Both the position numbers and the translations under genes were made by a program. The notes below the pieces were generated by a model that saw only the letters and a program-made list of their open reading frames with translations, ran no database searches and was not told the origin of the DNA. A stretch of DNA of 32,000 bases from Desulfobulbus propionicus (lineage in GTDB: Bacteria; Desulfobacterota; Dissulfuribacteria; Dissulfuribacterales; DYLC01): the NCBI GenBank assembly GCA_020722285.1, contig DYLC01000001.1, positions 21,984 through 53,983 of the forward strand. Direction: 5' to 3'. Shown here piece by piece: positions 2,227 through 15,980 of the stretch (the first letter of the stretch is position 1; every line of letters starts with the position of its first letter).

Positions 2227-4053
2227 TCAATCCTCGTCGTCCTGCTCCATTCTGGCCATGTCTTCAAACCTGATATCCAGTCCAAGCACTCCGATTATCT
2301 CATCCTCTATATTTCTTATTGGGGCGGATACCGTGATACACAATGCCCCAGTTATCTTGGAAGTGTAAAAGTGAGAGATATATATCTTACCTGTCTTGAT
2401 CGGTTCAATAAACCATGGCCGGTCAGAAAAATCATTGTAGAGCTGGAACTGGGCATACTTTGTGCGAAACTCTACATGAGTGATGTTTTCCGTAATTTTT
2501 TTGCCTTCAGTATTGACAACATACATAAACTGTACATAAGGATTTTCAGCCAGCCTCTGTTTCAGAAGAGGCTCTATCCTGGCTGGATCCATGGATGTAA
2601 TGTCTGGCAGTTCCACCAGACCTTCCACGATTTCTGTTGCCAGTTCCCGCACTTTTGCCTCAAGCCTGTCAAATTCAGAAACAAAAAACTCTGGCAAAAA
2701 TTTTCTCGCCAGCATCTCCATTTCCTCGTCGCTCATGGAAGTGATACGACCTGCATCATATTGCTGCATCACTTTCTTATACATTTTCACAATACCTGGG
2801 TGACGCTTGTCAACCTGCGCCTCACCAGCAAAACCGAGCTTCATGTTCACCCAGTGTGCAATGCCGGCCGAACCACTTTTATCTGAAATTATCACAGATA
2901 CAGGGCGATTCAGGATCTTTTCCGTATTGAAAATGTTGTAAATCTCTTCATTCTTCAAAAGGCCGTCTGCATGAATGCCCGCGCTGGTAGCATTGAAATC
3001 AGCTCCAACAAGCGGACAGTTGCGAGGTATGTGAACCCCAAGCTCCTTTTCAAAAAAGCGAGCCATATCTGTGATAGCCGTGGTATCTATTCCGTCCTGT
3101 GTGCCTCTCAAGGCTATGCGCTCTATCAAAAGCCCCTCTATCGGTGTGTTGCCTGTCCGTTCCCCAAAACCCAGAAGAGTTCCATTGACTGCGCCACAAC
3201 CGTACAGCCATGCTGAGGAGGCGTTAATTACAGATTTGTAAAAATCATTGTGACCATGCCATTCCAAAAGCTCGCCAGGTACACCTGCATCCTCAATCAC
3301 CGTGCGCACCAGCTTTGGCACACTGCGGGGCAGGCTTGCTCCAGGATATGTCACCCCATAGCCAAGGGTATCGCAAAGGCGTATCTTGATATCAATTCCG
3401 CTTTCTTCCCTTAACTTCATCAGTTCTATAGCAAATGGAATGACAAATCCATAAATATCCGCCCTTGTAATGTCCTCAAAATGACAACGAGGTCTTATGC
3501 CCTGTTCAAGGGCAGCTTTTACAATAGAAAGATACCCCTCCATTGCCTGAGAGCGAGTTTTATTGAGCTTCAAAAACACATGGTAGTCAGAGATTGAAGT
3601 TAGAATGCCCGTTTCTTCAAGCCCCATCTCTTTTACAAGCCTGAGATCCTCAGCCTTAGCCCTGATCCAGCCAGTAATCTCTGGAAATTGGTAGTCTTTT
3701 TCACGACATGCCATCAAGGCATCCCGATCCTTCTGTGTGTAGAGGAAAAACTCTGACTGCCTGATAATACCTTTTGGCCCACTTAGACGATGCAGAAAAT
3801 CAAATATCGTCGATATCTGTTCTACTGAATAGGGAGGCCTTGCCTGTTGGCCATCCCTGAAAGTTGTATCAGTAATGAACATATTATCGCATGGCTCAGG
3901 CATTGCAAACTTGTGATCAAATGTGATCTTGCAGACCTCGTCATAGGGAAACATCTCCCTCATGAGGTTTGGAGTCTCCACATCATGCAGTTTATACCAA
4001 TGTTCGCTGTGTTTATGGTCAAGGAGCTTTTTGGTTGGATTCCATTTCGCCAT
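2227..4053 (-). CDS. DRE-TIM (HMGL-like) aldolase of the isopropylmalate/homocitrate/Re-citrate synthase family, fused to a C-terminal Cache/PAS-like sensor domain
   Basis: 608-aa ORF with a strong RBS (AACAGGAGGAAAAAATG). The N-terminal ~430 aa carry FITDTTFRDGQQ, CHFEDITRAD, LCDTLGYG, EWHGHNDF and GFGERTGN, the catalytic TIM-barrel motifs. The FRDGQQ variant is what I associate with Re-citrate synthases. The C-terminal ~130 aa (FMYVVNTEGKKI...DRPWFIEPIKTGKIYISHFYTSKITGALCITVSAPI...IGVLGLDI) have the typical Cache/PDC signature. Confidence 0.8.
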   Translation of the reverse strand: MAKWNPTKKLLDHKHSEHWYKLHDVETPNLMREMFPYDEVCKITFDHKFAMPEPCDNMFITDTTFRDGQQARPPYSVEQISTIFDFLHRLSGPKGIIRQSEFFLYTQKDRDALMACREKDYQFPEITGWIRAKAEDLRLVKEMGLEETGILTSISDYHVFLKLNKTRSQAMEGYLSIVKAALEQGIRPRCHFEDITRADIYGFVIPFAIELMKLREESGIDIKIRLCDTLGYGVTYPGASLPRSVPKLVRTVIEDAGVPGELLEWHGHNDFYKSVINASSAWLYGCGAVNGTLLGFGERTGNTPIEGLLIERIALRGTQDGIDTTAITDMARFFEKELGVHIPRNCPLVGADFNATSAGIHADGLLKNEEIYNIFNTEKILNRPVSVIISDKSGSAGIAHWVNMKLGFAGEAQVDKRHPGIVKMYKKVMQQYDAGRITSMSDEEMEMLARKFLPEFFVSEFDRLEAKVRELATEIVEGLVELPDITSMDPARIEPLLKQRLAENPYVQFMYVVNTEGKKITENITHVEFRTKYAQFQLYNDFSDRPWFIEPIKTGKIYISHFYTSKITGALCITVSAPIRNIEDEIIGVLGLDIRFEDMARMEQDDED

Positions 4054-4273: not shown

Positions 4274-4885
4274 CTATACCCTGACAACCTTTGTGGCAAG
4301 CTGAAAAGAGGTCACAATATCAAGCATATTTGTGGTCTCGCCCACTGCCTTTTGCTCAAGCAGGCCAAAATGATTAAGGCAGGTGCCGCACACTAATATG
4401 CTCACCCCAGACTCCTCCAAAGCCTTCAGGCTTTCAAGATATTCTGATCCAGTAATTGCAAGTCTGACGCCGGCATTAACAAATACAATCCGCCATAGCG
4501 CCCCACCCATTTCCTTCAGGGTCACAATAAAGCTTTTCATTAAGAGCCTGCCAAGCTCAGCATCCCCTGTGCCCATTGAGTCGGATGGTATGAAGACAAG
4601 CACCCTTTCCACCTCTGATTCTTTTTCTGAAACAGAAGGCGCAGGGTCAACAGCAATGGCGCAGCCTCCCTTGGCTGTAAGGATAAAAAAGTCGGTTGCA
4701 TTCTCTTTTACCTCAACAACCCAGCCCTGGCTCCTGAAAAATCTTTCCACATTCTGACGCGCTGCCTCATTGTCAACAGTTATCTCCACGATAGCTTCAG
4801 GATGACTCTCAATAGCCTCTTTTGCCACCAGCACAGGCTTTGGACAGGCAAGCCCCTTGCAATCATATCGTTTAATCACAGTCAA
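4274..4885 (-). CDS. yedF: YedF-type sulfurtransferase-like (selenium metabolism) protein: TusA-like N-domain plus DsrE-like C-domain
   Basis: 203 aa. The N-terminus YDCKGLACPKPVL carries the TusA CPxP motif. The C-terminal half (VLVFIPSDSMGTGDAELG...ILVCGTCLNHFG) is DsrE-fold-like. Start is TTG at 4885, 4 nt after AGGAGG (GTG at 4879 is an alternative). The gene overlaps the upstream gene by 14 nt. Confidence 0.8.
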   Translation of the reverse strand: MTVIKRYDCKGLACPKPVLVAKEAIESHPEAIVEITVDNEAARQNVERFFRSQGWVVEVKENATDFFILTAKGGCAIAVDPAPSVSEKESEVERVLVFIPSDSMGTGDAELGRLLMKSFIVTLKEMGGALWRIVFVNAGVRLAITGSEYLESLKALEESGVSILVCGTCLNHFGLLEQKAVGETTNMLDIVTSFQLATKVVRV

Positions 4886-7529
4886 AATCCCTCCTTACAA
4901 CGCGTATGCGCTGGCAATCCGACTGGCTAAGCCCAAAGATTGACTTTATCATCTCTATGGGTTTTGCAGACGGTCTGACCTCGAACGACGGCTTCATTTT
5001 CAAGAATGTTTTTTCCTGCAGATAAATGTATTCCTGCTCAATATCCGATAACCAGTTTTGAAGCTCACCTATCTCATTAACCTCCTTAAATCCAAGAGGT
5101 GCAAGTTCCTTAATCTGTTTTTTCAGGTCAAAAGAGATTATTTTTCCTTTTTTTTCAAGATCAACCTCCCACACATCCTGCACGTTGAAGTTATCTGTCA
5201 TTCTGCAAATATCTGCTGGCTCCTTTTGTAAAATCAGAAAGAAATAATCCCAGCGATCCTCAAAGGAAATCCGCTCGTCACCAGTCAGCTTTTGACAGGA
5301 TGTAAGCCTGACTCCAGGAGAAAGCTCCTGATTGAGCCTTGATATAATCTCTGAACTGTCAATGGATATCTCAAGCTCCATGCCAAGCTTCTGAGACAGA
5401 CCTTCCATTGCCATGGAAAGCGGAGAGCCAAAGGAAAGATAGGGCATTGGGTGAAAACCATGAGAATAAAGAAGCGGCAAAGCCGCCCTGCGGCATGCCC
5501 GATGAAACATGTGGGCCATGTCAAGGTGGCCAATAAAGCGCGCATCGCCTATCTTTGAGTAGTGTAGCTGATATCTGTTCCGCTTTTCCAGAGGCGCAAG
5601 ACTGATTTCTGATGACATAGAGCGTGTTTTTTTTGCCGTGGCTGAATAACAAACTACAGGCTCAAAGGAACGAGGCTTGATCTTTTTGAAATCACATACC
5701 CCACACCCCTGACATTTTCCATGTCTGCAGTCAGGCGTATAAAGCTCCTGGACAGAAGCCGGATCATCAGCCATCTTAATGGCTTTTTGCCTTTCAGAAC
5801 GCAAGTAGTCTGTGGTTACACCTGTAAAAATATACCTCCAGGCAAGCTCGGCATCAACAGAAATTGGCTCAAGGTATGCAGCAAGATCAATCCCCAACTC
5901 CCTGGCTGCATCTTCGTAAAGGTCAAATCTGAGATGGTCGCTCCATGCGTCAAGCCTAGCGCCCTTATGCCAGACCAACTCCAAAAGCCTTGTAAGTCTT
6001 CTGTCGCCCCTGGAAAAGACGCCCTCCAGAAAACTCATGACAGGGTTGTGCCACTTGAAAATAATGGAGCGGTCTTTCAGGTTGCTTCTTATCAACTCAA
6101 GCCTTCGCCTGCTCTCCTCAATGCTGATCTGCCCTTCCCACTGAAAAGGCGTATGTGATTTTGGAACGAACGTACCAACACTTATCGTAACAGTGATAGA
6201 TTTGTTGATAGATTTTCCCAACCGTACAAGCCTCCTGGCAAGCTCTGCAATAGCAAGTACGTCATCATCTGTTTCAGTTGGCAGTCCGATCATGAAATAA
6301 AGCTTCAGGCCCTTCCAGCCGTTTTCGTACACAATCCTCGCCGTTTCAAAAAGGCCCTTTTCTGTAATGCCCTTGTTGATCACCTGTCTCATTCGCTCAC
6401 TTCCTGCCTCAGGAGCAAGGGTAAAACCTGTTTTCCGTGCCTGCTTGATGCTGTCCACCATTTCCTTGCCAAGCGTGCCAACCCGAAGCGATGGCAAGGA
6501 GACAGAGACCCGGTCATCTCTGTCCATAAGCCTTGCGATCAAGGGCTGAATAGAGCTGTAATCGCCTGTGCTGAGACTTAAAAGTGAAAGCTCTTCCCAG
6601 CCTGAAGCCTTCAACCCTGCTTCGCATAGCCCGGATATAGTTTCAAAGGCACGTTCTCTTACTGGCCTATAGATCATGCCAGCCTGACAAAAACGGCACC
6701 CCCTGGTGCAGCCTCTGGCGATTTCAACCCCAAATCTGTCATGCACGATCTTAACCTGCGGAACAAGCGGTTTTATTGGAAACGAGGCTGAATCAAGTTC
6801 TGGCAGGATCCGTCTTTTGACAGGTGGCACATTCTGCTTTTGGCTACCAGGTTCTGATGGCCACCTTTCTGGCGGCGTATTGCTCTGAATCCTGTAAATT
6901 GGTCTGTAAAACGATGGCACATAAATGCCTTCAATCCCTGCAAGTATCTCAAGGAGGGCGCTTTTGCTGTCTTTGTCCCTAATCTTTCCCTTACAATCCT
7001 TAACCCTTTGGGCTATTTCGACAATTGCCTCCTCGCCATCTCCAATCAAAACAGCATCGAAGAAATCTGCCACCGGTTCAGGCTGCACAGAGGCGCTGCC
7101 TCCTCCAAGCACCAAGGGAAAAGGGGTTTCACGCCTGTCTTTGGAGTAAAAGGGTATAGACGAAAGGCTTAAAACAGTAGGGATGTTCGTGTAGCACAAC
7201 TCATAGGGCAGGGTAATACCAAGGATGTCAAATTGACTGACAGGTCGTCTGCTTTCAACTGCCCAAAGAGGTGTGCTGCTCTCCCGCATCTGATGCTCCA
7301 TGTCAGGATCAGGGGCATAGACCCTGTCTGCAAGAACCCAAGGCAGGTCATTTAAAATGTGATAAAGGATGTGAAGTCCCAGATGGGACATGCCAACCTC
7401 ATAGAGGTCAGGGAAACAGAGGCAAAACCTGACATCAGCATCCTGCCAGTTTTTTCGCCTGGCGTTTGTTTCAACCCCTGTATAGCGGGACGGCCGCTGC
7501 ACAGAGCCAAGGAGATGAGCAATATTCAT
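4872..7529 (-). CDS. Radical SAM protein of the TIGR03960 type (B12-binding-like N-domain) fused to a DUF2344/TIGR03936 C-terminal module; function unknown
   Basis: 885 aa. The CxxxCxxC cluster motif sits in EIARGCTRGCRFCQAGMIYRP. The N-terminus FPDLYEVGMSHLGLHILY and the segment LVLGGGSASVQPEPVADFFDAVLIGDGEE form the B12-binding-like fold. The C-terminus RYQLHYSKIGDARFIGHLDMAHMFHRACRRAALPLLYSHGFHPMPYLSFGSPLSMAMEG is the DUF2344 signature. The ATG directly abuts the recR stop (TAA|ATG). Confidence 0.85.
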   Translation of the reverse strand: MNIAHLLGSVQRPSRYTGVETNARRKNWQDADVRFCLCFPDLYEVGMSHLGLHILYHILNDLPWVLADRVYAPDPDMEHQMRESSTPLWAVESRRPVSQFDILGITLPYELCYTNIPTVLSLSSIPFYSKDRRETPFPLVLGGGSASVQPEPVADFFDAVLIGDGEEAIVEIAQRVKDCKGKIRDKDSKSALLEILAGIEGIYVPSFYRPIYRIQSNTPPERWPSEPGSQKQNVPPVKRRILPELDSASFPIKPLVPQVKIVHDRFGVEIARGCTRGCRFCQAGMIYRPVRERAFETISGLCEAGLKASGWEELSLLSLSTGDYSSIQPLIARLMDRDDRVSVSLPSLRVGTLGKEMVDSIKQARKTGFTLAPEAGSERMRQVINKGITEKGLFETARIVYENGWKGLKLYFMIGLPTETDDDVLAIAELARRLVRLGKSINKSITVTISVGTFVPKSHTPFQWEGQISIEESRRRLELIRSNLKDRSIIFKWHNPVMSFLEGVFSRGDRRLTRLLELVWHKGARLDAWSDHLRFDLYEDAARELGIDLAAYLEPISVDAELAWRYIFTGVTTDYLRSERQKAIKMADDPASVQELYTPDCRHGKCQGCGVCDFKKIKPRSFEPVVCYSATAKKTRSMSSEISLAPLEKRNRYQLHYSKIGDARFIGHLDMAHMFHRACRRAALPLLYSHGFHPMPYLSFGSPLSMAMEGLSQKLGMELEISIDSSEIISRLNQELSPGVRLTSCQKLTGDERISFEDRWDYFFLILQKEPADICRMTDNFNVQDVWEVDLEKKGKIISFDLKKQIKELAPLGFKEVNEIGELQNWLSDIEQEYIYLQEKTFLKMKPSFEVRPSAKPIEMIKSIFGLSQSDCQRIRVVRRDFDCD

Positions 7530-8571: not shown

Positions 8572-10287
8572 TTATTTTTTAAAAAGGCTCACATCAACTA
8601 TTTTGGCGTCAAAGATGGCCAATGCATCCTGCACCAGTCTGTGCTGCAATAACTGTTCTTTTGTGCCGCCCTGCTGTCTATCTTGTTTTGTATCAGCAAG
8701 ATCAGCGGTCTCCTGTCGATCTACAGGAACAACAGACAAGGCTATGGTGCGGCCTGCAAACTCAGAGGCCATACCCCTGAGCTTTACAAGGTTGCCTTCA
8801 GCCTTTAGCATCTCATACTCAAAACCCGGATTGCACTCAAGGATCAATTGATCAGGCCTGTCAGTTGGCTGGATATTTTTACAGCATCTGAGATATGTTT
8901 CAAGCGGTGGATTATGCCTTCGAACAACATCACAGAAATCCTTCCAATTGTCATTGGTAATGCTGCTTGCAAGGGGCTTTTCATGTGTTTTTTCTTCTTC
9001 ACAGGAAACTGTCTGCTTGGATTCCAATGTATTTTTTCCTGTGGCAACAGTTGCTGACGGTTGAAAGTTTACAGCCTTAGTCTGCCCTCTCGCAGTATTT
9101 ACTACAATTTCTGGTCCCTCACATGTTGTTTTATGTATAAATTGAGGCCGGATATCTCCAATCTTCTCAAGAATTGAAGCAAGAGGCACCAGATTTTTTA
9201 TTGTGCAAAGACGCACCAAGAGTATCTCAGATAAAATTCTTGGGCTTGATGACCGTGAAAGTCCTTCCAGGCTTTTCATCAGCATATCAAGAAGCTGAAG
9301 AATAAAAACAGCAGATACTGTATCAAGTAAACGCTTAAGTTCTTCATCGCTGGCCAAATCAACACCGCTCACCAAAAGAGGCATAGCCTTGTCATATCCA
9401 AGCTCCTTTACCAGCAAGGTATCCCGCAAGGCATGAGCAAAATCCATAAGCAACCCTTTGAGCTCAACACCTTTCAGATAAGCTGTTTCCAGTTGTTCAA
9501 GCGCCATAGCGACATCAGACGTTAAAATCGCCTTCAATAGTCCGGTTAGCACAGTACTTTTGACAATACCAAGGGCATCACACAGATCTTCTGTGTTCAT
9601 TACCCCATAGGCGATGGCCTGGTCCAGCAAACTCAGGCTGTCACGGACACTTCCATCCGCCTCTTTGGCAATGAGAGACACAGCCTCATGCTCCATGCAT
9701 AAGCCCTCTTTTTGCAAAAGATTCTCTAAATGTCTGGCTATATCAAGATGATGTAACCGTTTAAACTCATGATGCTGACAACGAGAATGGATAGTGGCCG
9801 GAATTTTCTGAGACTCAGTAGTGGCCAGGATGAAATAGACAAAGCCAGGCGGCTCCTCAAGAGTCTTGAGCAGGGCGTTAAACGCCTCCTTGGTGAGCAT
9901 ATGCACTTCATCTATAATATAAACCCGAAAGCGGCACATGGCTGGCATGAATTTGCAGTTTTCCCTAAGCGCCCTTATCTCATCTATTCCACGATTGGAA
10001 GCACCATCAATCTCCTGGACATCAACTGCTGTGCCATTGGTGATTGCATGACATTTTGGACAGGTATTGCATGGAGTAGGAGTAGGACCGTGGTCACAAT
10101 TAAGCGCCTTGGCAAGAATGCGGGCAACAGTAGTCTTTCCCACTCCTCTAACGCCACTGAATATCTGGGCATGGGCAAGCCTTTTATTCTCTATTGCATT
10201 TTGAAGTGTTCTGGTGACAGAGGCTTGCCCGATGACATCTTCAAATGCCTGAGGTCTGTATTTTCTGGCAAGGACCAAGTATGACAT
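8572..10287 (-). CDS. dnaX: DNA polymerase III subunit gamma/tau
   Basis: MSYLVLARKYRPQAFEDVIGQ, Walker A GVRGVGKTTVARILAK, zinc module CDHGPTPTPCNTCPKCH, and Walker B YIIDEVHML. Start is set at the ATG at 10287. The ORF-track extension to 10332 overlaps the SRP RNA gene. Confidence 0.95.
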   Translation of the reverse strand: MSYLVLARKYRPQAFEDVIGQASVTRTLQNAIENKRLAHAQIFSGVRGVGKTTVARILAKALNCDHGPTPTPCNTCPKCHAITNGTAVDVQEIDGASNRGIDEIRALRENCKFMPAMCRFRVYIIDEVHMLTKEAFNALLKTLEEPPGFVYFILATTESQKIPATIHSRCQHHEFKRLHHLDIARHLENLLQKEGLCMEHEAVSLIAKEADGSVRDSLSLLDQAIAYGVMNTEDLCDALGIVKSTVLTGLLKAILTSDVAMALEQLETAYLKGVELKGLLMDFAHALRDTLLVKELGYDKAMPLLVSGVDLASDEELKRLLDTVSAVFILQLLDMLMKSLEGLSRSSSPRILSEILLVRLCTIKNLVPLASILEKIGDIRPQFIHKTTCEGPEIVVNTARGQTKAVNFQPSATVATGKNTLESKQTVSCEEEKTHEKPLASSITNDNWKDFCDVVRRHNPPLETYLRCCKNIQPTDRPDQLILECNPGFEYEMLKAEGNLVKLRGMASEFAGRTIALSVVPVDRQETADLADTKQDRQQGGTKEQLLQHRLVQDALAIFDAKIVDVSLFKK

Positions 10288-10310
10288 ATAGTATTTCAAA
10301 GACAAAAATA

Positions 10311-10404
10311 GCCAGGCACCCCCGCGGCACACAAGATTGACTGCTGCCGTTGCTTCCTTCCGGACCTAGCGGGGTTCACAGGACCATGTTGCGCAGGACC
10401 TGGC
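10311..10404 (-). ncRNA. ffs: Signal recognition particle RNA (small 4.5S type)
   Basis: The minus strand reads GCCAGGUCCUGCGC...GCUAGGUCCGGAAGGAAGCAACGGCAGC...GCCGCGGGGGUGCCUGGC. It contains the conserved domain IV motif GGUCCGGAAGGAAGCA. The 5' GCCAGG/CCUGCG segments pair with the 3' CGCGGG/CCUGGC segments, and UAUUUUUG follows. The position just upstream of dnaX is a classic synteny. Ends are accurate to about 5 nt. Confidence 0.8.
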
Positions 10405-10425
10405 TAAACAGGGGATAAAGTTAGA

Positions 10426-10591: not shown

Positions 10592-10617
10592 GTAACCACA
10601 CAAAAAAGCCCCTCTCT
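10592..10617 (-). terminator. Rho-independent terminator downstream of tRNA-Arg
   Basis: The minus strand reads AGCCCCUC-CAAGA-GAGGGGCU followed by UUUUUUG. This is an 8-bp GC-rich stem, a short loop and a U6 tract. Confidence 0.8.
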
Positions 10618-10643
10618 TGGAGGGGCTAACCTATTGATTTTAT

Positions 10644-10720
10644 TGGTATGCCTGAAGGGATTCGAACCCCTGGCCTTCGGATTCGTAGTCCGACGCTCTA
10701 TCCAACTGAGCTACAGGCAC
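10644..10720 (-). tRNA. tRNA-Arg(ACG): tRNA-Arg (anticodon ACG), CCA encoded
   Basis: The reverse complement is GUGCCUGUAGCUCAGUUGGAUAGAGCGUCGGACUACGAAUCCGAAGGCCAGGGGUUCGAAUCCCUUCAGGCAUACCA. The D-arm is GCUC/GAGC. The anticodon stem is UCGGA/UCCGA with loop CUACGAA. The T-loop is UUCGAAU. As encoded, the acceptor stem begins with a G1-U72 wobble. Confidence 0.92.
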
Positions 10721-10753
10721 ATAACATAAAATAGTAGATTGTAAGTAACAATC

Positions 10754-10939
10754 TTACCACCAACTAATTGTCTGATCGGCCTCAAATATCATCTGAACAA
10801 GCATGTCATAATTAGGTTTATTCTTGTACAGAGCATACTCTTTTACGTCACGATCTCTATTAATTATTGCTACAAGCTTATTTACAGTTTCACAAGGCTC
10901 ATTTCTATAGATATGAAGTATTTTTTTTGTGTCACTCAT
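10754..10939 (-). CDS. Small conserved hypothetical protein, last gene of the YTD-type cluster; short DsrH/TusB-like protein by my reading
   Basis: 61 aa with RBS AAGGAG, 14 nt after the preceding gene. The N-terminus KKILHIYRNEP and C-terminus NYDMLVQMIFEADQTISWW resemble the ends of TusB/DsrH as I recall them (MLHTLHRSP... and ...YTDFVRLTVKHPSQMAW). The family assignment is an inference. Confidence 0.55.
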   Translation of the reverse strand: MSDTKKILHIYRNEPCETVNKLVAIINRDRDVKEYALYKNKPNYDMLVQMIFEADQTISWW

Positions 10940-10953
10940 CTTATCGCTCCTTA

Positions 10954-11298
10954 TTACTCGCCACAGGCAGGTGGTGGCGTCTTGGTCTGTTTTGACAAAC
11001 CATAAGGTATGATGATATCAGCCTCTCTAAGCCTTTCGCCAAGCTCTTCCAAGGTAACGGGTGTCAACTCAACACCTTCTGGAAGCTCAGCTCCATCACA
11101 ACCCATCTGCAAAACATCACCCTCCATATCCCGTATCCAATCTATATTCTCTTTCAGATAATCTGAAAAGCGAGGAAGCTCGCCATTCATAAACACTGGA
11201 TAGGCATAATGATTTTCCACTGCCTGACCTAAGGCTGAACGTACACCGTCGCCAGCATAAATCCTGTTTGGAAGAAGCATATATATCTTTTTAGACAT
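10954..11298 (-). CDS. Conserved hypothetical protein of the YTD-type cluster; DsrF/TusC-like core with a Cys-bearing C-terminal tail
   Basis: 114 aa with RBS AAAGGAG. KKIYMLLPNRIYAGDGVRSALGQA and VTLEELGERLREADIIIPY resemble the first strand-helix and the C-terminus of TusC/DsrF (recalled as ...LRRELANYDVILRF). An extra tail GLSKQTKTPPPACGE follows. The family assignment is an inference. Confidence 0.6.
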   Translation of the reverse strand: MSKKIYMLLPNRIYAGDGVRSALGQAVENHYAYPVFMNGELPRFSDYLKENIDWIRDMEGDVLQMGCDGAELPEGVELTPVTLEELGERLREADIIIPYGLSKQTKTPPPACGE

Positions 11299-11313
11299 TT
11301 TTTAATCTCCTTT

Positions 11314-11646
11314 TTAAAGGACAAGATATTTGCCGCACTCATCAAGCACAGCACCGTGATATGCCTGAGTGCGCATCTGACGAGCGGTTAACCCCTGAGG
11401 TATGTCCTTCTCAGGGTCATACCCTTCACATGTGTAGCTATCGGCACATATAGCAATATCTTCAATATCACAAAGATTCGCAAGGGTTACAAAATCAGGA
11501 CTTTTGGTCAGATGAACTGACTTGAAAGTGAAAAACACCATCACTTTTTTCCCTGCCCTCACAGCAGCCTTGGCTATGCCCACCAGATGGGACATATGCT
11601 GCGGAGAAGTTACAAATATTCCAAGCTTATTTGGATCAGCAGACAT
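11314..11646 (-). CDS. DsrE-family (DsrE/TusD-like) sulfur-relay protein
   Basis: MSADPNKLGIFVTSPQHMSHLVGIAKAAVRAGKKVMVFFTFKSVHL shows the DsrE-fold pattern, and cysteines occur in ICADSYTCEG. Start is set at the ATG at 11646, preceded by TTAAGGAGAAAAAA. The ORF-track TTG at 11673 has no RBS. Confidence 0.7.
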   Translation of the reverse strand: MSADPNKLGIFVTSPQHMSHLVGIAKAAVRAGKKVMVFFTFKSVHLTKSPDFVTLANLCDIEDIAICADSYTCEGYDPEKDIPQGLTARQMRTQAYHGAVLDECGKYLVL

Positions 11647-11711
11647 TTTTTTCTCCTTAATTTTTAAACGCAATTTTTAGAAAAAATATACCCCCCGCTC
11701 AACCCTGAGCA

Positions 11712-11969
11712 CTATTTTTTCTTTACAAAAAAACGAATAAACCCTGAATCTTCCTTCTCGCCAAGATACTCATGTCCAGAACGGGCACACCAGCCTGGTA
11801 TATCGTTTCTTGAACCAGGATCTGTGCCAAGAACCTCAAGGATTTCACCTGCATTGATCTTCTCAATCTCTTTTTTAGTGCGTAGAAGAGGCATTGGGCA
11901 GCTAAGTCCCTTTGCATCCAATGTGCGCGCTACACTAAGACCATCTGGAGCCTGTTTAATGTCACTCAT
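11712..11969 (-). CDS. tusA: TusA-family sulfurtransferase / sulfur carrier
   Basis: 85 aa. LDAKGLSCPMPLLRTKKEIEKINAGEILEVLGTDPGSRNDIPGW carries the CPxP active-site motif and the TusA fold pattern. RBS is TAGGAGGAAAAC. Confidence 0.9.
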   Translation of the reverse strand: MSDIKQAPDGLSVARTLDAKGLSCPMPLLRTKKEIEKINAGEILEVLGTDPGSRNDIPGWCARSGHEYLGEKEDSGFIRFFVKKK

Positions 11970-11998
11970 GTTTTCCTCCTAAAAATTATATTTTTTTA

Positions 11999-13159
11999 TT
12001 ACATTTCAACAACAAGAGCATTGCTGTCTTCATTCCAGTCAATCACAACATACCAAACAACCATCAAGGCTATAATCAAAAACATTGTGCCACCATAACC
12101 AAGATAATCAGGCAGATACACTGCAGAGCCAAGTTTTTCCATCCACCCATTAGCACCAAACCAGTTACGCATCAGGGAGTTTGTAAGCCCAAAGATTATG
12201 ATAACCACCCAGAGTTTAATCTGCCCCTCAGCCACACGCCACAAAGAACCACTTCCACAACCACCTGCAACAACCATTGCTGCGCCGAAGATAAATCCGC
12301 CAACCAAGCTGCCCCAACCAAATGCAGACTCAACATACATGGAAGTATCCCTGAGCTCAGTAAACTTCAGAATCGCTATTCCAAACATACCCAATATTAC
12401 ACTGACAGCAACTGCCTTTCCCATTGCAGCCTCACCTGTCATAAACGGCTCCCTGAAACCGTTTACCATACAAAGCCTGCTGCGATGAAATACATAACCG
12501 ATGCCAGCACCAATCAACAAATAACCAGGCATCAACTCTGCACCATCAACATCAGAACCAGTATATGCATAAGCAGCCCCAATCAGAGCAGCAAATCCCA
12601 CCCAGCCCAAGGCTGGAGGAAGCTTGTTAAGTATGGTTGGCCCAGCAGGACCTGGAGTAAAATGCTCCATTTCCCAGTAGATGTATCTAAGCCCCACATA
12701 CACACCGGCAATAAGACCAATCATCATAGTTATGCCACTGGCAGAAAGGTTCTGAATCGCACAGTAAAACCCTCCAACATTACAACCAAAAGCCAGAGTT
12801 GAGCCAATCCCCATCAGGATGCCAGCAATAACACCCTTCCAAATCTCAAGCATCGGAGGAAATCTGAAGGCAAACTCACGGGCGATCACAGCAGAAATCC
12901 AGGCGCCAGCCAGTATTCCAATATCAATTACAGAGGATGAGAAATACAGCGGATGCTTGGGCGCATTTTCATATAAACCAACGGCATAAAATACCCAGTC
13001 TCCCCAATTACGAATCCCGCCAACCACTCCCCAGGGCCTTGCCCACGCTACCATAAATATAGACAACAAGGCAAGCAGTATCCCCCCGGTCATAGGAGAC
13101 CAGGTACGCTTAAAAAACGAATCATAAATCTCTGAAACCTTACTTGACATTGAACTCAT
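11999..13159 (-). CDS. yeeE: YeeE/YedE-family membrane transporter (thiosulfate or sulfur-compound uptake type)
   Basis: 386 aa, polytopic and glycine-rich, with the duplicated YeeE/YedE motifs LAFGCNVGG and VVAGGCGSGSLWR. RBS is CAGGAGGGG. A tusA-like gene follows 29 nt downstream. Confidence 0.88.
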   Translation of the reverse strand: MSSMSSKVSEIYDSFFKRTWSPMTGGILLALLSIFMVAWARPWGVVGGIRNWGDWVFYAVGLYENAPKHPLYFSSSVIDIGILAGAWISAVIAREFAFRFPPMLEIWKGVIAGILMGIGSTLAFGCNVGGFYCAIQNLSASGITMMIGLIAGVYVGLRYIYWEMEHFTPGPAGPTILNKLPPALGWVGFAALIGAAYAYTGSDVDGAELMPGYLLIGAGIGYVFHRSRLCMVNGFREPFMTGEAAMGKAVAVSVILGMFGIAILKFTELRDTSMYVESAFGWGSLVGGFIFGAAMVVAGGCGSGSLWRVAEGQIKLWVVIIIFGLTNSLMRNWFGANGWMEKLGSAVYLPDYLGYGGTMFLIIALMVVWYVVIDWNEDSNALVVEM

Positions 13160-13313
13160 TTCAACCCCTCCTGCTTATGCTTTTGTATTGCATGTAATGA
13201 AAAAACAAATTAACATAATTGTTACATGGTTAGGTCGTACCAAAAATCACGCACTATGTCAAGATATTAGATGAATGACCATTCATTAGTTTGCATACAG
13301 CAGGAGGTTGAAC

Positions 13314-15980
13314 TTGAAACACAAAACATACAAAACAATTTTATTTATACTATCAATTAGTTATCTTTTTTTTACTCTTCAAAATAGCTTCGCTAAAGGA
13401 GACAACATGGACAAGCACGACCTTGTTTCTAAGAAAAAATTACAAAATGGAGTTGTTAGCATCATAAAACACAGCAACCGAGCGCCTGTTGTGGCGGTTC
13501 AGGTCTGGGTAATGGCAGGCAGCGCCTATGAAACACCTCAACAAGCCGGCATCACTCATTTGATCGAACACATGATATTTAAAGGAACTGAAAAACGGAA
13601 GCCAGGTGAAATCGCAAGCTCTATTGAGACAATTGGAGGCTCCATCAATGCCTACACCTCCCTTGACTATACAGTATATCATTGCGAAGTGCCACGAGAT
13701 GCAGCCAGACAGGCCATTGATATCCTTGCAGATGCGGTGTTTCACTCAACCTTCGACCCTGTTGAGCTTGAAAGGGAAAAACAGGTTGTGCTGGAAGAGA
13801 TCAAGATGCGTGAAGACAGACCCACGTCCAGACTCTCAAGGATTGTAATGGAAAACGCCTACACCGTACACCCCTACAAAAGGCCTGTAATAGGCTTTGA
13901 ACACACAGTCAACAGCTTTACCAGAGACGACATCCTTGCCTATATGAAGCAGCGTTATCAGCCTGAAAACATAAAAGTTGTGATAGTAGGAGATATCCCT
14001 GTAGAACAAGGCCACCTTTTGACAGAGGAATTTTTTGGAAATATCTCAGGCGCAAAGCAGGAGCAACCTAAACCCCAACGAGAAACAGCGCAGACCGCCC
14101 TAAGGCTACATGTTGAAAACATGAACATTCACGAGGGCTATCTTGCCATGGCCTTTTCCGGTCTTCCCCCATTCGACCACGAAGACACAGTAGCCCTGGA
14201 CTTGCTGGCAACGGTTCTTGGAGAAGGAACCAGCTCAAGATTAACAAAAAATCTCAAAGACAAAAAACAACTCGTCCACTCCATAAGCAGCTACTCATTT
14301 ACCCCTCAAGGCCCTGGGCTTTTCGAGATAACTTCATCAATTGAGCCAAAACTCGCCACCCAAGTAATAATAGAAACAGTTCGTGAATTGGTCTTACTGC
14401 AAAACGAACTCATTTCAGACAATGAACTGAATAGGGCAAAAACACAGGTTGAAAAAGGTTTTATATCCAGCAGAGAAACAATGGAGGGAGATGCTCAAAA
14501 ATACGGAATATTTGAGGCGCTTAAAGGGGAACCAGATGCAGAAACCGTTTACATTGCCAAACTCAGGGCTCTTACCCCTAAGGACATACAAAATGTTGCC
14601 CAAAAATATATGGCAGTATCTAATCTTACTATTGCAGCAGTATTTCCCAACGACACCAAAACTTCACTGAATGCAGATGAACTGCAACAAGAACTTGTCA
14701 AGCAAGGACTTTCGCCTGTACCTGCTTCTGATGTCCAAAGCGTCTTTGCACCTGTCGAAAAACTATCGCTCTCCAATGGCATGACGCTGCTGATCCGAGA
14801 GCTGCCAGATGTTCCAACAGTTGCAGTCAAAGCAGTTTTTCCCGGGGGATTAAGACACGAATCCCCTGAAACCAACGGGCTTTTTAACTATCTGGCGAGA
14901 TCCTGGATAAAAGGAACAGATAAATTAAGCGCCCATGAACTTGCAGACAGCATAGAAGGCCTTGGCGGAAGTATAGAAGGATTTGCAGGACAAAACACCT
15001 TTGGTCTGTCTGCCCATTTTTTAAGTCAACATCTTGACCAAAGCCTTGCTTTATTCACTGAAACCCTTACATCGCCTGCCTTTTTACAGTCCGAGGTAGA
15101 AAGCCTCAAATCATCCATGCTTGCTGAATTGAAACATCAGGAGGACTCCCTGACTTCAATAACATTGAGGGAATTCAGAAGAGAATTGTATTCGCCTCAC
15201 CCTTACAGTTTAAATCTTGTTGGAAGTGAACCTGTTTTTCAGAAAACTACCTCAAGCGATCTAAAAAGACTCTATGACACATATTGCCTGCCTGAAAAAG
15301 GCGTTATTTCCATTGTAGGCGATGTAAAATCATCAGATATCATCCAGAAACTTGAAAACCTGCTTGGAAACTGGAAACCAGCGCCGGTTGCAGTTGCAGC
15401 GCCACAAAGGCCAAAACCCAATCCTCTAAATGAACCAAGGATATTTAAACTTAAAAAAGAAAAGGAACAGACCCACGTTATTCTTGGTTTTCCTTCTGCC
15501 TCCATAGACCACCCTGACAGATTCAGTCTCGAAGTATTGAGCGCCATACTTGCAGGACAGGGGGGCAGACTTTTTACAAACCTGCGGGACAAGGAAAGCC
15601 TCGCTTACTCAGTTACATTTACCGTGGGCCTCGGGATTGAATATGGCTATGCGGCATTTTACATAGCCTGCTCCCCGGAAAAAACCAACGACGCAACCAA
15701 AGCCTTCTGGAGAGAGATATATCTGCTACTTGAAAATCCAGTTTCCCAGCAGGAAATAGACAGGGCAAAGGCATGGCTTATAGGAGAGCACGAAATAGGC
15801 CTGCAGACAAACGCATCCCAGGCGCTTGACATCGCAATCAATGAGCTTTATGGACTTGGATACAGCTTTTCCGAACAATACATCCAACGCATCAAGGATG
15901 TTACGAGAGAAGATGTGCATAGAATAGCCAGGACTTATCTTACGCCCAAAAACTATGTGTTGATACAGGTAGGGTCATAG
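13314..15980 (+). CDS. Secreted double-length M16 (pitrilysin/insulinase) family zinc peptidase
   Basis: The inverted zinc motif HxxEH sits in GITHLIEHMIFKGT, followed by REKQVVLEEIKMRED. A second M16-like half (about residues 480-890) lacks HxxEH. N-terminal signal peptide is KTILFILSISYLFFTLQNSFA. I prefer the TTG at 13314, 6 nt after AGGAGG, over the TTG at 13308, which abuts the RBS. Confidence 0.88.
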   Translation: MKHKTYKTILFILSISYLFFTLQNSFAKGDNMDKHDLVSKKKLQNGVVSIIKHSNRAPVVAVQVWVMAGSAYETPQQAGITHLIEHMIFKGTEKRKPGEIASSIETIGGSINAYTSLDYTVYHCEVPRDAARQAIDILADAVFHSTFDPVELEREKQVVLEEIKMREDRPTSRLSRIVMENAYTVHPYKRPVIGFEHTVNSFTRDDILAYMKQRYQPENIKVVIVGDIPVEQGHLLTEEFFGNISGAKQEQPKPQRETAQTALRLHVENMNIHEGYLAMAFSGLPPFDHEDTVALDLLATVLGEGTSSRLTKNLKDKKQLVHSISSYSFTPQGPGLFEITSSIEPKLATQVIIETVRELVLLQNELISDNELNRAKTQVEKGFISSRETMEGDAQKYGIFEALKGEPDAETVYIAKLRALTPKDIQNVAQKYMAVSNLTIAAVFPNDTKTSLNADELQQELVKQGLSPVPASDVQSVFAPVEKLSLSNGMTLLIRELPDVPTVAVKAVFPGGLRHESPETNGLFNYLARSWIKGTDKLSAHELADSIEGLGGSIEGFAGQNTFGLSAHFLSQHLDQSLALFTETLTSPAFLQSEVESLKSSMLAELKHQEDSLTSITLREFRRELYSPHPYSLNLVGSEPVFQKTTSSDLKRLYDTYCLPEKGVISIVGDVKSSDIIQKLENLLGNWKPAPVAVAAPQRPKPNPLNEPRIFKLKKEKEQTHVILGFPSASIDHPDRFSLEVLSAILAGQGGRLFTNLRDKESLAYSVTFTVGLGIEYGYAAFYIACSPEKTNDATKAFWREIYLLLENPVSQQEIDRAKAWLIGEHEIGLQTNASQALDIAINELYGLGYSFSEQYIQRIKDVTREDVHRIARTYLTPKNYVLIQVGS

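Follow-up and report, generated by a model that had tools for sequence, protein, structure and literature searches.

The five minus-strand genes described here very probably form a yeeE-tusA-dsrEFH type II operon (previously called the 'YTD cluster') that encodes a cytoplasmic sulfane-sulfur relay. Within it, the 114-aa and 61-aa proteins are assigned by sequence as the DsrF and DsrH subunits of a DsrEFH type II sulfur transferase. An earlier sequence-only reading of this DNA had taken the cluster for a DsrEFH-type relay in which two hypothetical proteins act as compact DsrF and DsrH partners in a complex served by YeeE and TusA; this is correct, but it was already published in 2026 (PMC13293266), and the locus is one more orthologue. 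Plum-Jensen et al. (ISME J 2026, PMC13293266) reported that the dsrE-like gene and both hypothetical genes of the YTD cluster encode a heterotrimeric "DsrEFH type II", on the evidence of an AlphaFold heterotrimer, 1:1:1 co-purification and in vitro passage of sulfur from TusA to DsrE-Cys67 and on to DsrC. Given that work, the earlier statement that the cluster lacks biochemical characterization is out of date. As established in 2026, the cluster supplies what had been missing for organisms with a 'reductive-type' Dsr system to run it oxidatively, and recognition of DsrEFH type II changes the interpretation of genomes from sulfate reducers, cable bacteria and disproportionators.

Within the window, by which we mean the whole 32,000-nt stretch of DNA that was analyzed, the cluster comprises genes for a YeeE-like protein (386 aa), TusA (85 aa), a DsrE-like protein (110 aa) and the 114-aa and 61-aa proteins (Table 1). 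On three public contigs with an identical 61-aa protein, independent gene callers returned the same five genes with the same lengths. The ORFs, their common direction and their spacers (29, 65, 15 and 14 nt in cluster order) are as first described, and so is the AGGAG-type ribosome binding site of each gene: all five start with ATG, preceded by AGGAGG, AGGAGG, AAGGAGA, AGGAG and AAGGAG, respectively. The DsrE-like protein had been given as 111 aa; its actual length is 110 aa, as it is in 79 of 80 orthologues. With five co-directional genes and a 29-nt yeeE-tusA spacer, a five-gene operon is likely from the gene layout. Nothing upstream of yeeE matched the sigma-70 promoter consensus. Downstream, 33 nt separate the dsrH stop codon from a tRNA-Arg(ACG) gene; the terminator scan detected nothing in this interval, and the first terminator-like element that it recorded downstream of the cluster is the hairpin listed in Table 1.

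Table 1. Positions of the cluster genes, key residues and downstream elements in the window
Feature	Coordinates	Strand	Basis
yeeE/yedE-like membrane sulfur transporter, 386 aa	11999..13159	-	Pfam Sulf_transp 5.7e-49
tusA sulfur carrier, 85 aa	11712..11969	-	Pfam TusA 8.4e-26
Active Cys24 of TusA, CPMP motif	11898-11900	-	Codon position
dsrE type II, 110 aa	11314..11646	-	79 % identity to E. aureum GS DsrE
Active-site Cys67 of DsrE	11446-11448	-	Motif AIC67ADSY
dsrF type II, 114 aa, ending KTPPPACGE	10954..11298	-	64 % identity to E. aureum GS DsrF
DsrF C-terminal extension, residues 101-114 LSKQTKTPPPACGE	10957..10998	-	Tail present in 87/170 DsrF sequences
Cys112 of DsrF	10963-10965	-	Codon position
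dsrH type II, 61 aa	10754..10939	-	54 % identity to E. aureum GS DsrH
tRNA-Arg(ACG)	10644..10720	-	ARAGORN + Rfam
Terminator-like hairpin, 8 bp, 6 G-C, then T run	10607..10627	-	Terminator scan

When the cluster is compared with that of the cable bacterium Candidatus Electronema aureum GS (E. aureum GS), its identity becomes clear. The DsrEFH type II locus of E. aureum GS has the same tusA-dsrE-dsrF-dsrH set and order beside yeeE, and the encoded proteins are 77 % (TusA), 79 % (DsrE), 64 % (DsrF) and 54 % (DsrH) identical to those of the window. Both systems share the DsrE active-site Cys67 in an AICADSY motif, three further DsrE cysteines (C59, C73 and C104), a DsrF tail with PPPAC and a DsrH some 60 aa long. 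Across 167 loci Cys67 never varies, and Cys24 of TusA, the first residue of the C24-P-M-P motif that had been noted from the sequence, is kept in 79 of 79 orthologues. The YTD gene cluster is attributed to Umezawa et al. 2020 where it is cited in PMC13293266 and PMC9751629; its composition is no different from that of the cluster in the window, as the earlier reading had it, and its name is superseded by yeeE-tusA-dsrEFH type II.

The gene neighborhoods of relatives tell the same story. Proteins related to the 114-aa protein are encoded at 472 loci in genomes and 499 in metagenomes; synteny was counted on the 80 genome loci that were retained. Every one of these has the order tusA-dsrE-dsrF-dsrH, as do all 160 related loci sampled; a YeeE gene adjoins in 77 of the 80, and the other three loci end less than 100 bases upstream of tusA. 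This five-gene arrangement is far beyond chance. The orientation of yeeE varies among related loci (36 co-directional, 41 divergent): in the window it is co-directional with tusA and 29 nt away, whereas it is divergent in cable bacteria and most Desulfobulbaceae. The window YeeE is moreover of a different subtype from that of E. aureum GS, to which it is only 48 % identical.

Direct comparison with the canonical DsrEFH and TusBCD proteins is far less informative. The E-F-H gene order does match the E-F-H/D-C-B order of type I DsrEFH (Allochromatium vinosum, PDB 2HY5) and TusBCD (E. coli, PDB 2D1P), as the sequence-only reading had pointed out, but sequence identity to these proteins is below 25 %. 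Against Pfam, the window DsrE matched only DrsE_2 (E=0.069) and the 114-aa and 61-aa proteins matched nothing; in the wider type II DsrE family, 8 of 16 members match Pfam DsrE, with a best E of 4.8e-05. Thus the curated PF02635 (DsrE/DsrF), DsrH and TusB/C/D models fail to recognize the window DsrE, DsrF and DsrH, none of 18,950 NCBIfam models, a set in which any TusB/C/D model would be found, matches the three proteins, and profile searches of the PDB were empty. A link from sequence to canonical DsrF/TusC and DsrH/TusB was accordingly dropped, as nothing significant came from Pfam, NCBIfam, PDB profiles or hhalign against E. coli TusB/C/D. The local hhalign matches of type II proteins to E. 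coli TusB/C/D are positionally sensible but weak. DsrE C67 is set on TusD Cys78 (E 0.23). The motif resemblances proposed earlier for the 114-aa protein (to TusC/DsrF) and the 61-aa protein (to TusB/DsrH) fall exactly where hhalign places its matches, but with E-values of only 0.042, over 18 C-terminal residues, and 0.54, respectively, they are leads rather than proof.

Structure comparison gave a similarly divided answer. The AF2 model of DsrF (pLDDT 91) retrieves members of the DsrE family, 3pnx (prob 1.0, TMq 0.6) and 2qs7 (prob 0.95), when searched against the PDB with Foldseek, although the E-values are only about 0.03 (at least 0.026). The DsrH model adopts a beta-alpha-beta-alpha-beta fold (pLDDT 82), but DsrH/TusB structures are absent from its top 50 Foldseek matches. 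DsrH has 1656 homologue clusters, with lengths of 57-63 aa among the 120 matches listed. Because our own fold and profile tests are weak for DsrF and uninformative for DsrH, membership in DsrEFH type II rests on orthology.

What types I and II have in common is a heterotrimer, whose three subunits in type II too would have the DsrE fold, and a single catalytic cysteine, located on E/D, with TusA donating sulfur and a protein of the DsrC/TusE type accepting it. They differ in that the type II complex is mostly a trimer, whereas type I and TusBCD form hexamers, and that the subunits are smaller (110/114/61 aa in the window, compared with 128/119/95 aa in E. coli TusD/C/B). Unlike type I, type II is tied to reductive-type dsrAB and, in one clade, has a cysteine-bearing DsrF tail. 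Across genomes, dsrEFH type II was counted in 985, of which 73.9 % have reductive dsrAB (PMC13293266).

The relay proposed for the window follows this scheme. The YeeE-like permease would import reduced sulfur species, polysulfide being favored in the literature; in vitro, thiosulfate did not persulfidate cable-bacterial TusA, DsrEFH type II or DsrC (PMC13293266). TusA would accept the imported sulfur as a persulfide on Cys24 and hand it to Cys67 of DsrE, held in a 1:1:1 heterotrimer in which the 114-aa DsrF and 61-aa DsrH would serve as non-catalytic scaffold subunits, and DsrE would then pass the sulfur on to DsrC, to be oxidized by DsrAB run in reverse. For the window itself, the sequence analysis establishes the gene anatomy, the orthology and the conservation of cysteines and synteny; that this organism forms the complex and carries out the transfers known from the orthologue is inferred, and so are the substrate imported and the direction in which the relay runs in the cell. 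As dsrAB, dsrC, other dsr, apr and sat genes were all absent from the 32-kb window, where the context is housekeeping, the downstream acceptor for this genome is assigned only by analogy with the orthologue.

The C-terminal extension of DsrF suggests that this scheme may be incomplete for part of the family. The C-terminal arm of DsrC/TusE is flexible, rich in proline and small residues, and carries a cysteine two to three residues from its end. The sequence-only reading suggested that the DsrF tail could be a persulfide-carrying arm of this kind. The tail may be compared with the DsrC/TusE arm in its flexible, proline-rich end (pLDDT 63-73 in the AF2 model) and near-terminal cysteine; unlike the arm, it has no second cysteine about 10 residues upstream, and the fold of the host protein differs. 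The tail, with the motif ...PPxAC[AGS][ED], is clade-specific. The conservation expected for its cysteine holds within the tailed clade, where it is invariant (87/87, in 170 DsrF sequences) even though pairwise identity among tailed DsrF falls to 53 %, but does not extend to the sister clade, which has no tail. Column entropy is 0.65 bits for the tail against 0.75 for the DsrF core, the cysteine is encoded by TGT in 52 cases and TGC in 34, and all four proline codons are used. By these sequence measures the tail is evidently under purifying selection, as conserved as the folded core. This cysteine tail is undescribed in PMC13293266.

The tail also co-varies with two cysteines of DsrE. In a recount anchored on motifs (a cysteine +6 from the active cysteine and another -7 from the DsrE C-terminus), C73 and C104 accompany the tail in 86 of 86 tailed loci and in 0 of 79 tail-less loci, where Lys, Asn or Arg mostly stands at the first position and Tyr or Phe at the second. 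C59 was considered as a further co-varying residue and discarded as an alignment artefact, since a cysteine lies 6-13 residues upstream of the active one in both clades (84/86 and 76/79). In the tailed clade, which includes the window and the cable bacteria, DsrF Cys112 and DsrE Cys73/Cys104 might therefore constitute a second functional site, an extension of the type II reading that we regard as a real but tentative possibility; invariance despite divergence, core-like conservation with synonymous turnover at the Cys and Pro codons, the perfect co-variation and the replacement of the DsrE pair in the tail-less clade all speak for it. Such a site could take the form of a mobile persulfide arm to DsrC, a redox di- or trisulfide, or a metal/Fe-S clamp of the tail onto DsrE.

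The published biochemistry bears on this in both directions. Polysulfide persulfidates the tailed DsrF of E. aureum at an exposed cysteine, and from the DsrE-C67S variant sulfur still reaches DsrC, though not TusA (PMC13293266), which a second site, if it exists, would explain. On the other hand, the authors considered the DsrF labeling nonspecific, and persulfidated TusA loads DsrE only, with TusA-derived sulfur absent from DsrF and no relay from C67 to the tail seen in vitro (PMC13293266). The sister clade has the same gene set without the tail (the inspected tail-less loci keep the tusA-dsrE-dsrF-dsrH block, and of the 170 loci nearly all yielded dsrE, dsrF and dsrH). The family can thus do without the tail, and as the co-variation divides two clades it may reflect a single evolutionary event. 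The metal version is further disfavored by the accessible, persulfidatable tail cysteine, which argues against tight metal binding; a stable four-cysteine metal cluster is unlikely, given that the tail cysteine of the recombinant orthologue is open to polysulfide. The fuller proposal, that throughout a large clade (the window, cable bacteria, Desulfobulbaceae and Dissulfuribacter-like lineages) the three cysteines act as a swinging persulfide arm or a redox/metal switch gating delivery to DsrC, is possible but rather doubtful. If the three-cysteine feature is functional, the relay with a single catalytic cysteine on DsrE would need revision for a clade that includes the model organism. A possible addition to the published picture is a conserved three-cysteine feature that separates the two DsrEFH type II clades and includes the DsrF cysteine whose labeling was called nonspecific.

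The original YTD hypothesis offers another reading, in which the cluster serves as a module for sulfur disproportionation and does not mark a capacity for sulfur oxidation. Among named organisms, Dissulfurirhabdus thermomarina and Dissulfurimicrobium, both disproportionators, have the proteins most closely related to the window DsrF and DsrH. In Desulfolithobacter dissulfuricans, whose GF1_30720 is 67 % identical to the window DsrF, proteomics detected the full set of five YTD proteins, which were more abundant during thiosulfate disproportionation (PMC9751629), a condition under which TusA of Dissulfuribacter thermophilus is also up (PMC13490349). Nonetheless, dsrEFH type II is present in only 25 of 63 cultured disproportionators, is also found in many sulfate reducers that do not disproportionate, and is uncorrelated with which sulfur species an organism disproportionates (PMC13293266). 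The two roles also overlap in mechanism, because disproportionation includes an oxidative branch. A module dedicated to disproportionation therefore seems unlikely.

The 386-aa permease satisfies only the general Pfam Sulf_transp domain; its scores against the NCBIfam equivalogs for selenium YedE/FdhT (109 bits, cut-off 350) and thiosulfate TsuA/YeeE (99 bits, cut-off 400) lie far below the cut-offs, and it therefore represents a separate subfamily. A YedE/YedF-related selenium-trafficking set, or a TusBCD-like biosynthetic relay for tRNA 2-thiouridine or cofactor sulfur, is very improbable and was rejected on model cut-offs and gene context: YedE/FdhT is the top NCBIfam match of the transporter, a genuine YedF is encoded elsewhere in the window, at a distance of 6 kb, and the gene order mirrors tusDCB, but the YedE/FdhT score is too low, the DsrE/F/H proteins match no NCBIfam model, neither tusE nor mnmA is nearby, and the orthologous complex feeds DsrC and co-occurs with dsrAB (PMC13293266). 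Two cysteines of the permease, Cys126 and Cys301, sit in GCxxG motifs. At the other end of the cluster, the window DsrH differs from that of E. aureum GS by a 4-residue N-terminal extension and by a terminal xWW motif that has Ser rather than Cys.

When the cluster is read against recent work, it is apparent that it represents an already known system, DsrEFH type II or YTD. Plum-Jensen et al. (ISME J 2026; PMC13293266) took as their starting point hypothetical genes that adjoin yeeE and tusA in cable bacteria and are both conserved and highly expressed, and explicitly equate the YTD dsrE-like gene and both conserved hypotheticals with 'dsrEFH type II'. The central deduction of the sequence-only reading, made from raw sequence, that the two hypotheticals are DsrF and DsrH is correct and matches this account, while its statement that the cluster lacks biochemical characterisation is outdated. 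In PMC13293266 the recombinant proteins co-purify 1:1:1, mainly as a heterotrimer; DsrE Cys67 is loaded by persulfidated TusA, which is abolished in a C67S variant, and sulfur passes unidirectionally from the complex to DsrC. The genes occur in 985 genomes, and reductive-type dsrAB accompany them in 73.9 % of these. The name dsrEFH type II has since been taken up in a proteomics study (PMC13490349), and proteomics of Desulfolithobacter dissulfuricans detected all five YTD proteins (PMC9751629).

The gene arrangement is as the sequence-only reading described it, with spacers of 29, 65, 15 and 14 nt and an AGGAG-type Shine-Dalgarno sequence upstream of each ATG start, except that the DsrE-like protein has 110 rather than 111 residues. 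Identical calls for all five genes are found on three public contigs carrying an identical 61-aa protein. Pfam gave no match for the 114-aa and 61-aa ORFs, and NCBIfam no model for these two or the DsrE-like protein.

Features of the window discussed in the text
Feature	Coordinates	Strand	Details
YeeE/YedE-like permease	11999-13159	-	386 aa; Pfam Sulf_transp 5.7e-49
TusA	11712-11969	-	85 aa; Cys24 in CPMP; Pfam TusA 8.4e-26
DsrE-like protein	11314-11646	-	110 aa; Pfam DrsE_2 E=0.069 only
114-aa ORF (DsrF)	10954-11298	-	C-terminus ...KTPPPACGE
DsrF Cys67	11098-11100	-	MGCDG
61-aa ORF (DsrH)	10754-10939	-
DsrH C-terminus	10754-10762	-	ends in WW
Terminator-like hairpin	10607-10627	-
Small SRP RNA (bacterial)	10307-10405	-	70.9 bits
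Longest dnaX ORF	8572-10332	-	586 aa; GTG start 10332
B12-binding radical SAM fusion	4872-7529	-	885 aa; TIGR03960-type
YedF	4274-4885	-	203 aa
HMGL-like/dCache ORF	2227-4053	-	608 aa
M16 peptidase	13308-15980	+	~888 aa; two-domain

A search with the 114-aa protein matched 87 clusters, including Dissulfurirhabdus, Desulfogranum, Desulfolithobacter (GF1_30720, 67 % identical) and Electronema. Scanning species-representative genomes gave 472 loci, of which 80 were kept, among them that of Ca. Electronema aureum GS, whose complex is the experimentally characterised reference. The order tusA-dsrE-dsrF-dsrH is unchanged in all 80 (tblastn with the five window proteins), and YeeE adjoins in 77; the remaining three loci stop <100 bases upstream of tusA. 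Window and GS proteins are 79 % (DsrE), 64 % (DsrF), 54 % (DsrH) and 77 % (TusA) identical. DsrE Cys67 (AIC67ADSY) is invariant across 167 loci, and TusA Cys24 is kept in 79/79 orthologues. The 61-aa family comprises 1656 clusters at 90 % identity, the best 120 of which are 57-63 aa long. Synteny, orthology and the catalytic residue therefore place the window cluster in DsrEFH type II.

Links to canonical DsrEFH/TusBCD are of uneven quality. The DsrF AF2 model is confident (pLDDT 91) and Foldseek places it with the DsrE-family structures 3pnx and 2qs7 (probability 0.95-1.0, TM ~0.5-0.6, E only ~0.03), with 2HY5 and 2D1P absent from its top 50 PDB matches; the DsrH model (pLDDT 82, beta-alpha-beta-alpha-beta) gave no informative PDB match. 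On these comparisons alone, a DsrE-like fold is possible for the small ORFs. The TusC and TusB motif resemblances pointed out in the sequence-only reading are exactly those aligned by hhalign, at weak significance: ...LEELGERLREADIIIPY with ...LRRELANYDVILRF of E. coli TusC (E 0.042), and YRNEP... with HRSP... of E. coli TusB (E 0.54). For DsrE, Pfam DsrE is matched by 8/16 type II family members (best E 4.8e-05), and hhalign places Cys67 on TusD Cys78 (weak, E 0.23). These profiles suggest a better canonical-family link for DsrE than for the small subunits, whose weak links agree with the remark in PMC13293266 that the family escapes sequence tools.

The best-supported model is a relay in which the YeeE-type permease would import sulfur, to be carried as a persulfide on TusA Cys24, handed to DsrE Cys67 within the DsrEFH type II trimer, and passed through DsrC to DsrAB. 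The closest named relatives of the window DsrF and DsrH, among the matches listed, are sulfur disproportionators, and therefore the relay may serve the oxidative branch of disproportionation in this lineage, which is compatible with the model. In the window, yeeE runs in the same direction as tusA at a distance of 29 nt, which makes a five-gene operon likely; yeeE is divergent in 41/77 related loci. A scan upstream of yeeE gave no consensus promoter. Within 10607-10753, a tRNA-Arg(ACG) gene starts 33 nt past the dsrH stop on the same strand with no terminator between, and because the first terminator-like hairpin lies beyond it, the tRNA may share the operon's transcript. The transporter itself appears exchangeable: YeeE is >=70 % identical to the window protein in only 9/77 loci, the others being 41-50 % identical, often longer (matches ~440 aa), and co-directional in 27 or divergent in 41, at loci where TusA is 70-95 % and DsrE 67-85 % identical.

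What interest remains is modest and concerns a clade-specific DsrF cysteine tail with two co-varying DsrE cysteines. The tail is the sole part of the finding that goes beyond PMC13293266, whose text and supplements mention no tail, proline, zinc or disulfides. It comprises 13-15 residues (consensus L[PS]KQ[ST]xxPP[PAG]AC[ASG][ED]) and is confined to one clade, which includes the window and cable bacteria; more distantly related type II DsrF sequences terminate in ...IPF/IPY(G), as do canonical DsrF/TusC. Across 80 genome loci, 80 metagenome loci (tail-less profile) and a few look-ups, the Cys highlighted in the sequence-only reading is present in 87/87 tailed DsrF sequences, and the tail is missing from 83 others. 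Although pairwise DsrF identity falls to 53 % within the tailed clade, the tail matches the folded core in conservation (column entropy 0.65 vs 0.75 bits). At its Cys and Pro positions synonymous codons are fully exchanged (Cys TGT 52, TGC 34), which indicates purifying selection. The tail's lower AF2 confidence (63-73) is consistent with flexibility. DsrE C73 (+6 from the active Cys) and C104 (-7 from the C-terminus) occur in 86/86 tailed and 0/79 tail-less loci, the latter having mostly Lys, Asn or Arg, and Tyr or Phe, at these positions. C59, considered as a fourth co-varying Cys, was rejected as an alignment artefact, an upstream Cys being present in both clades.

We regard a real function of the tail, whether as a relay arm or as a redox or metal site, as rather unlikely: the co-variation separates two clades and may reflect a single event, and the sister clade manages without a tail. 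The complex used for biochemistry in PMC13293266 is tailed. There, DsrF acquired a single persulfide from polysulfide, at 'an exposed' Cys, the C67S complex continued to donate sulfur to DsrC but not to TusA, and TusA-derived sulfur was found on DsrE only; the authors consider the DsrF chemistry nonspecific, a label that the conservation makes less comfortable.

Other cysteines differ as well. The residue before the invariant terminal WW of type II DsrH is Cys in 79/83 tail-less and 48/85 tailed sequences and Ser in the window, a further clade-linked cysteine difference within the complex. DsrF internal Cys67 is found only in the window sequence among 81 orthologues, 49 of which have a Cys two residues earlier, and is probably irrelevant.

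Housekeeping genes surround the cluster (dnaX, recR, SRP RNA, tRNA-Ser, M16 peptidase, hemB, tilS, ftsH, folP, cdaA, glmM, dnaN, gyrB), and no dsr, apr or sat genes accompany it within the 32-kb window. Another sulfur/selenium-trafficking gene is found 6 kb from the cluster: YedF, a TusA-domain and DsrE-domain fusion passing the NCBIfam equivalog TIGR03527 (219.5 bits, cut-off 110), overlaps the end of the radical SAM fusion by 14 nt. The SRP RNA overlaps the longest dnaX ORF over the ORF's initial 26 nt; given a 571-aa dnaX in one public gene call, the shorter start is probably the true one. In the 608-aa ORF, which scores far below the cut-off of every synthase equivalog model, residues 60-332 form an HMGL-like catalytic domain (isopropylmalate/homocitrate synthase-type) and residues 474-600 a C-terminal dCache/PDC sensor domain, an unusual pairing. 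The divergent M16 peptidase is conserved beside the cluster, both in the window and on several related contigs (L081-L083, L089-L091), some of them without an adjacent yeeE.
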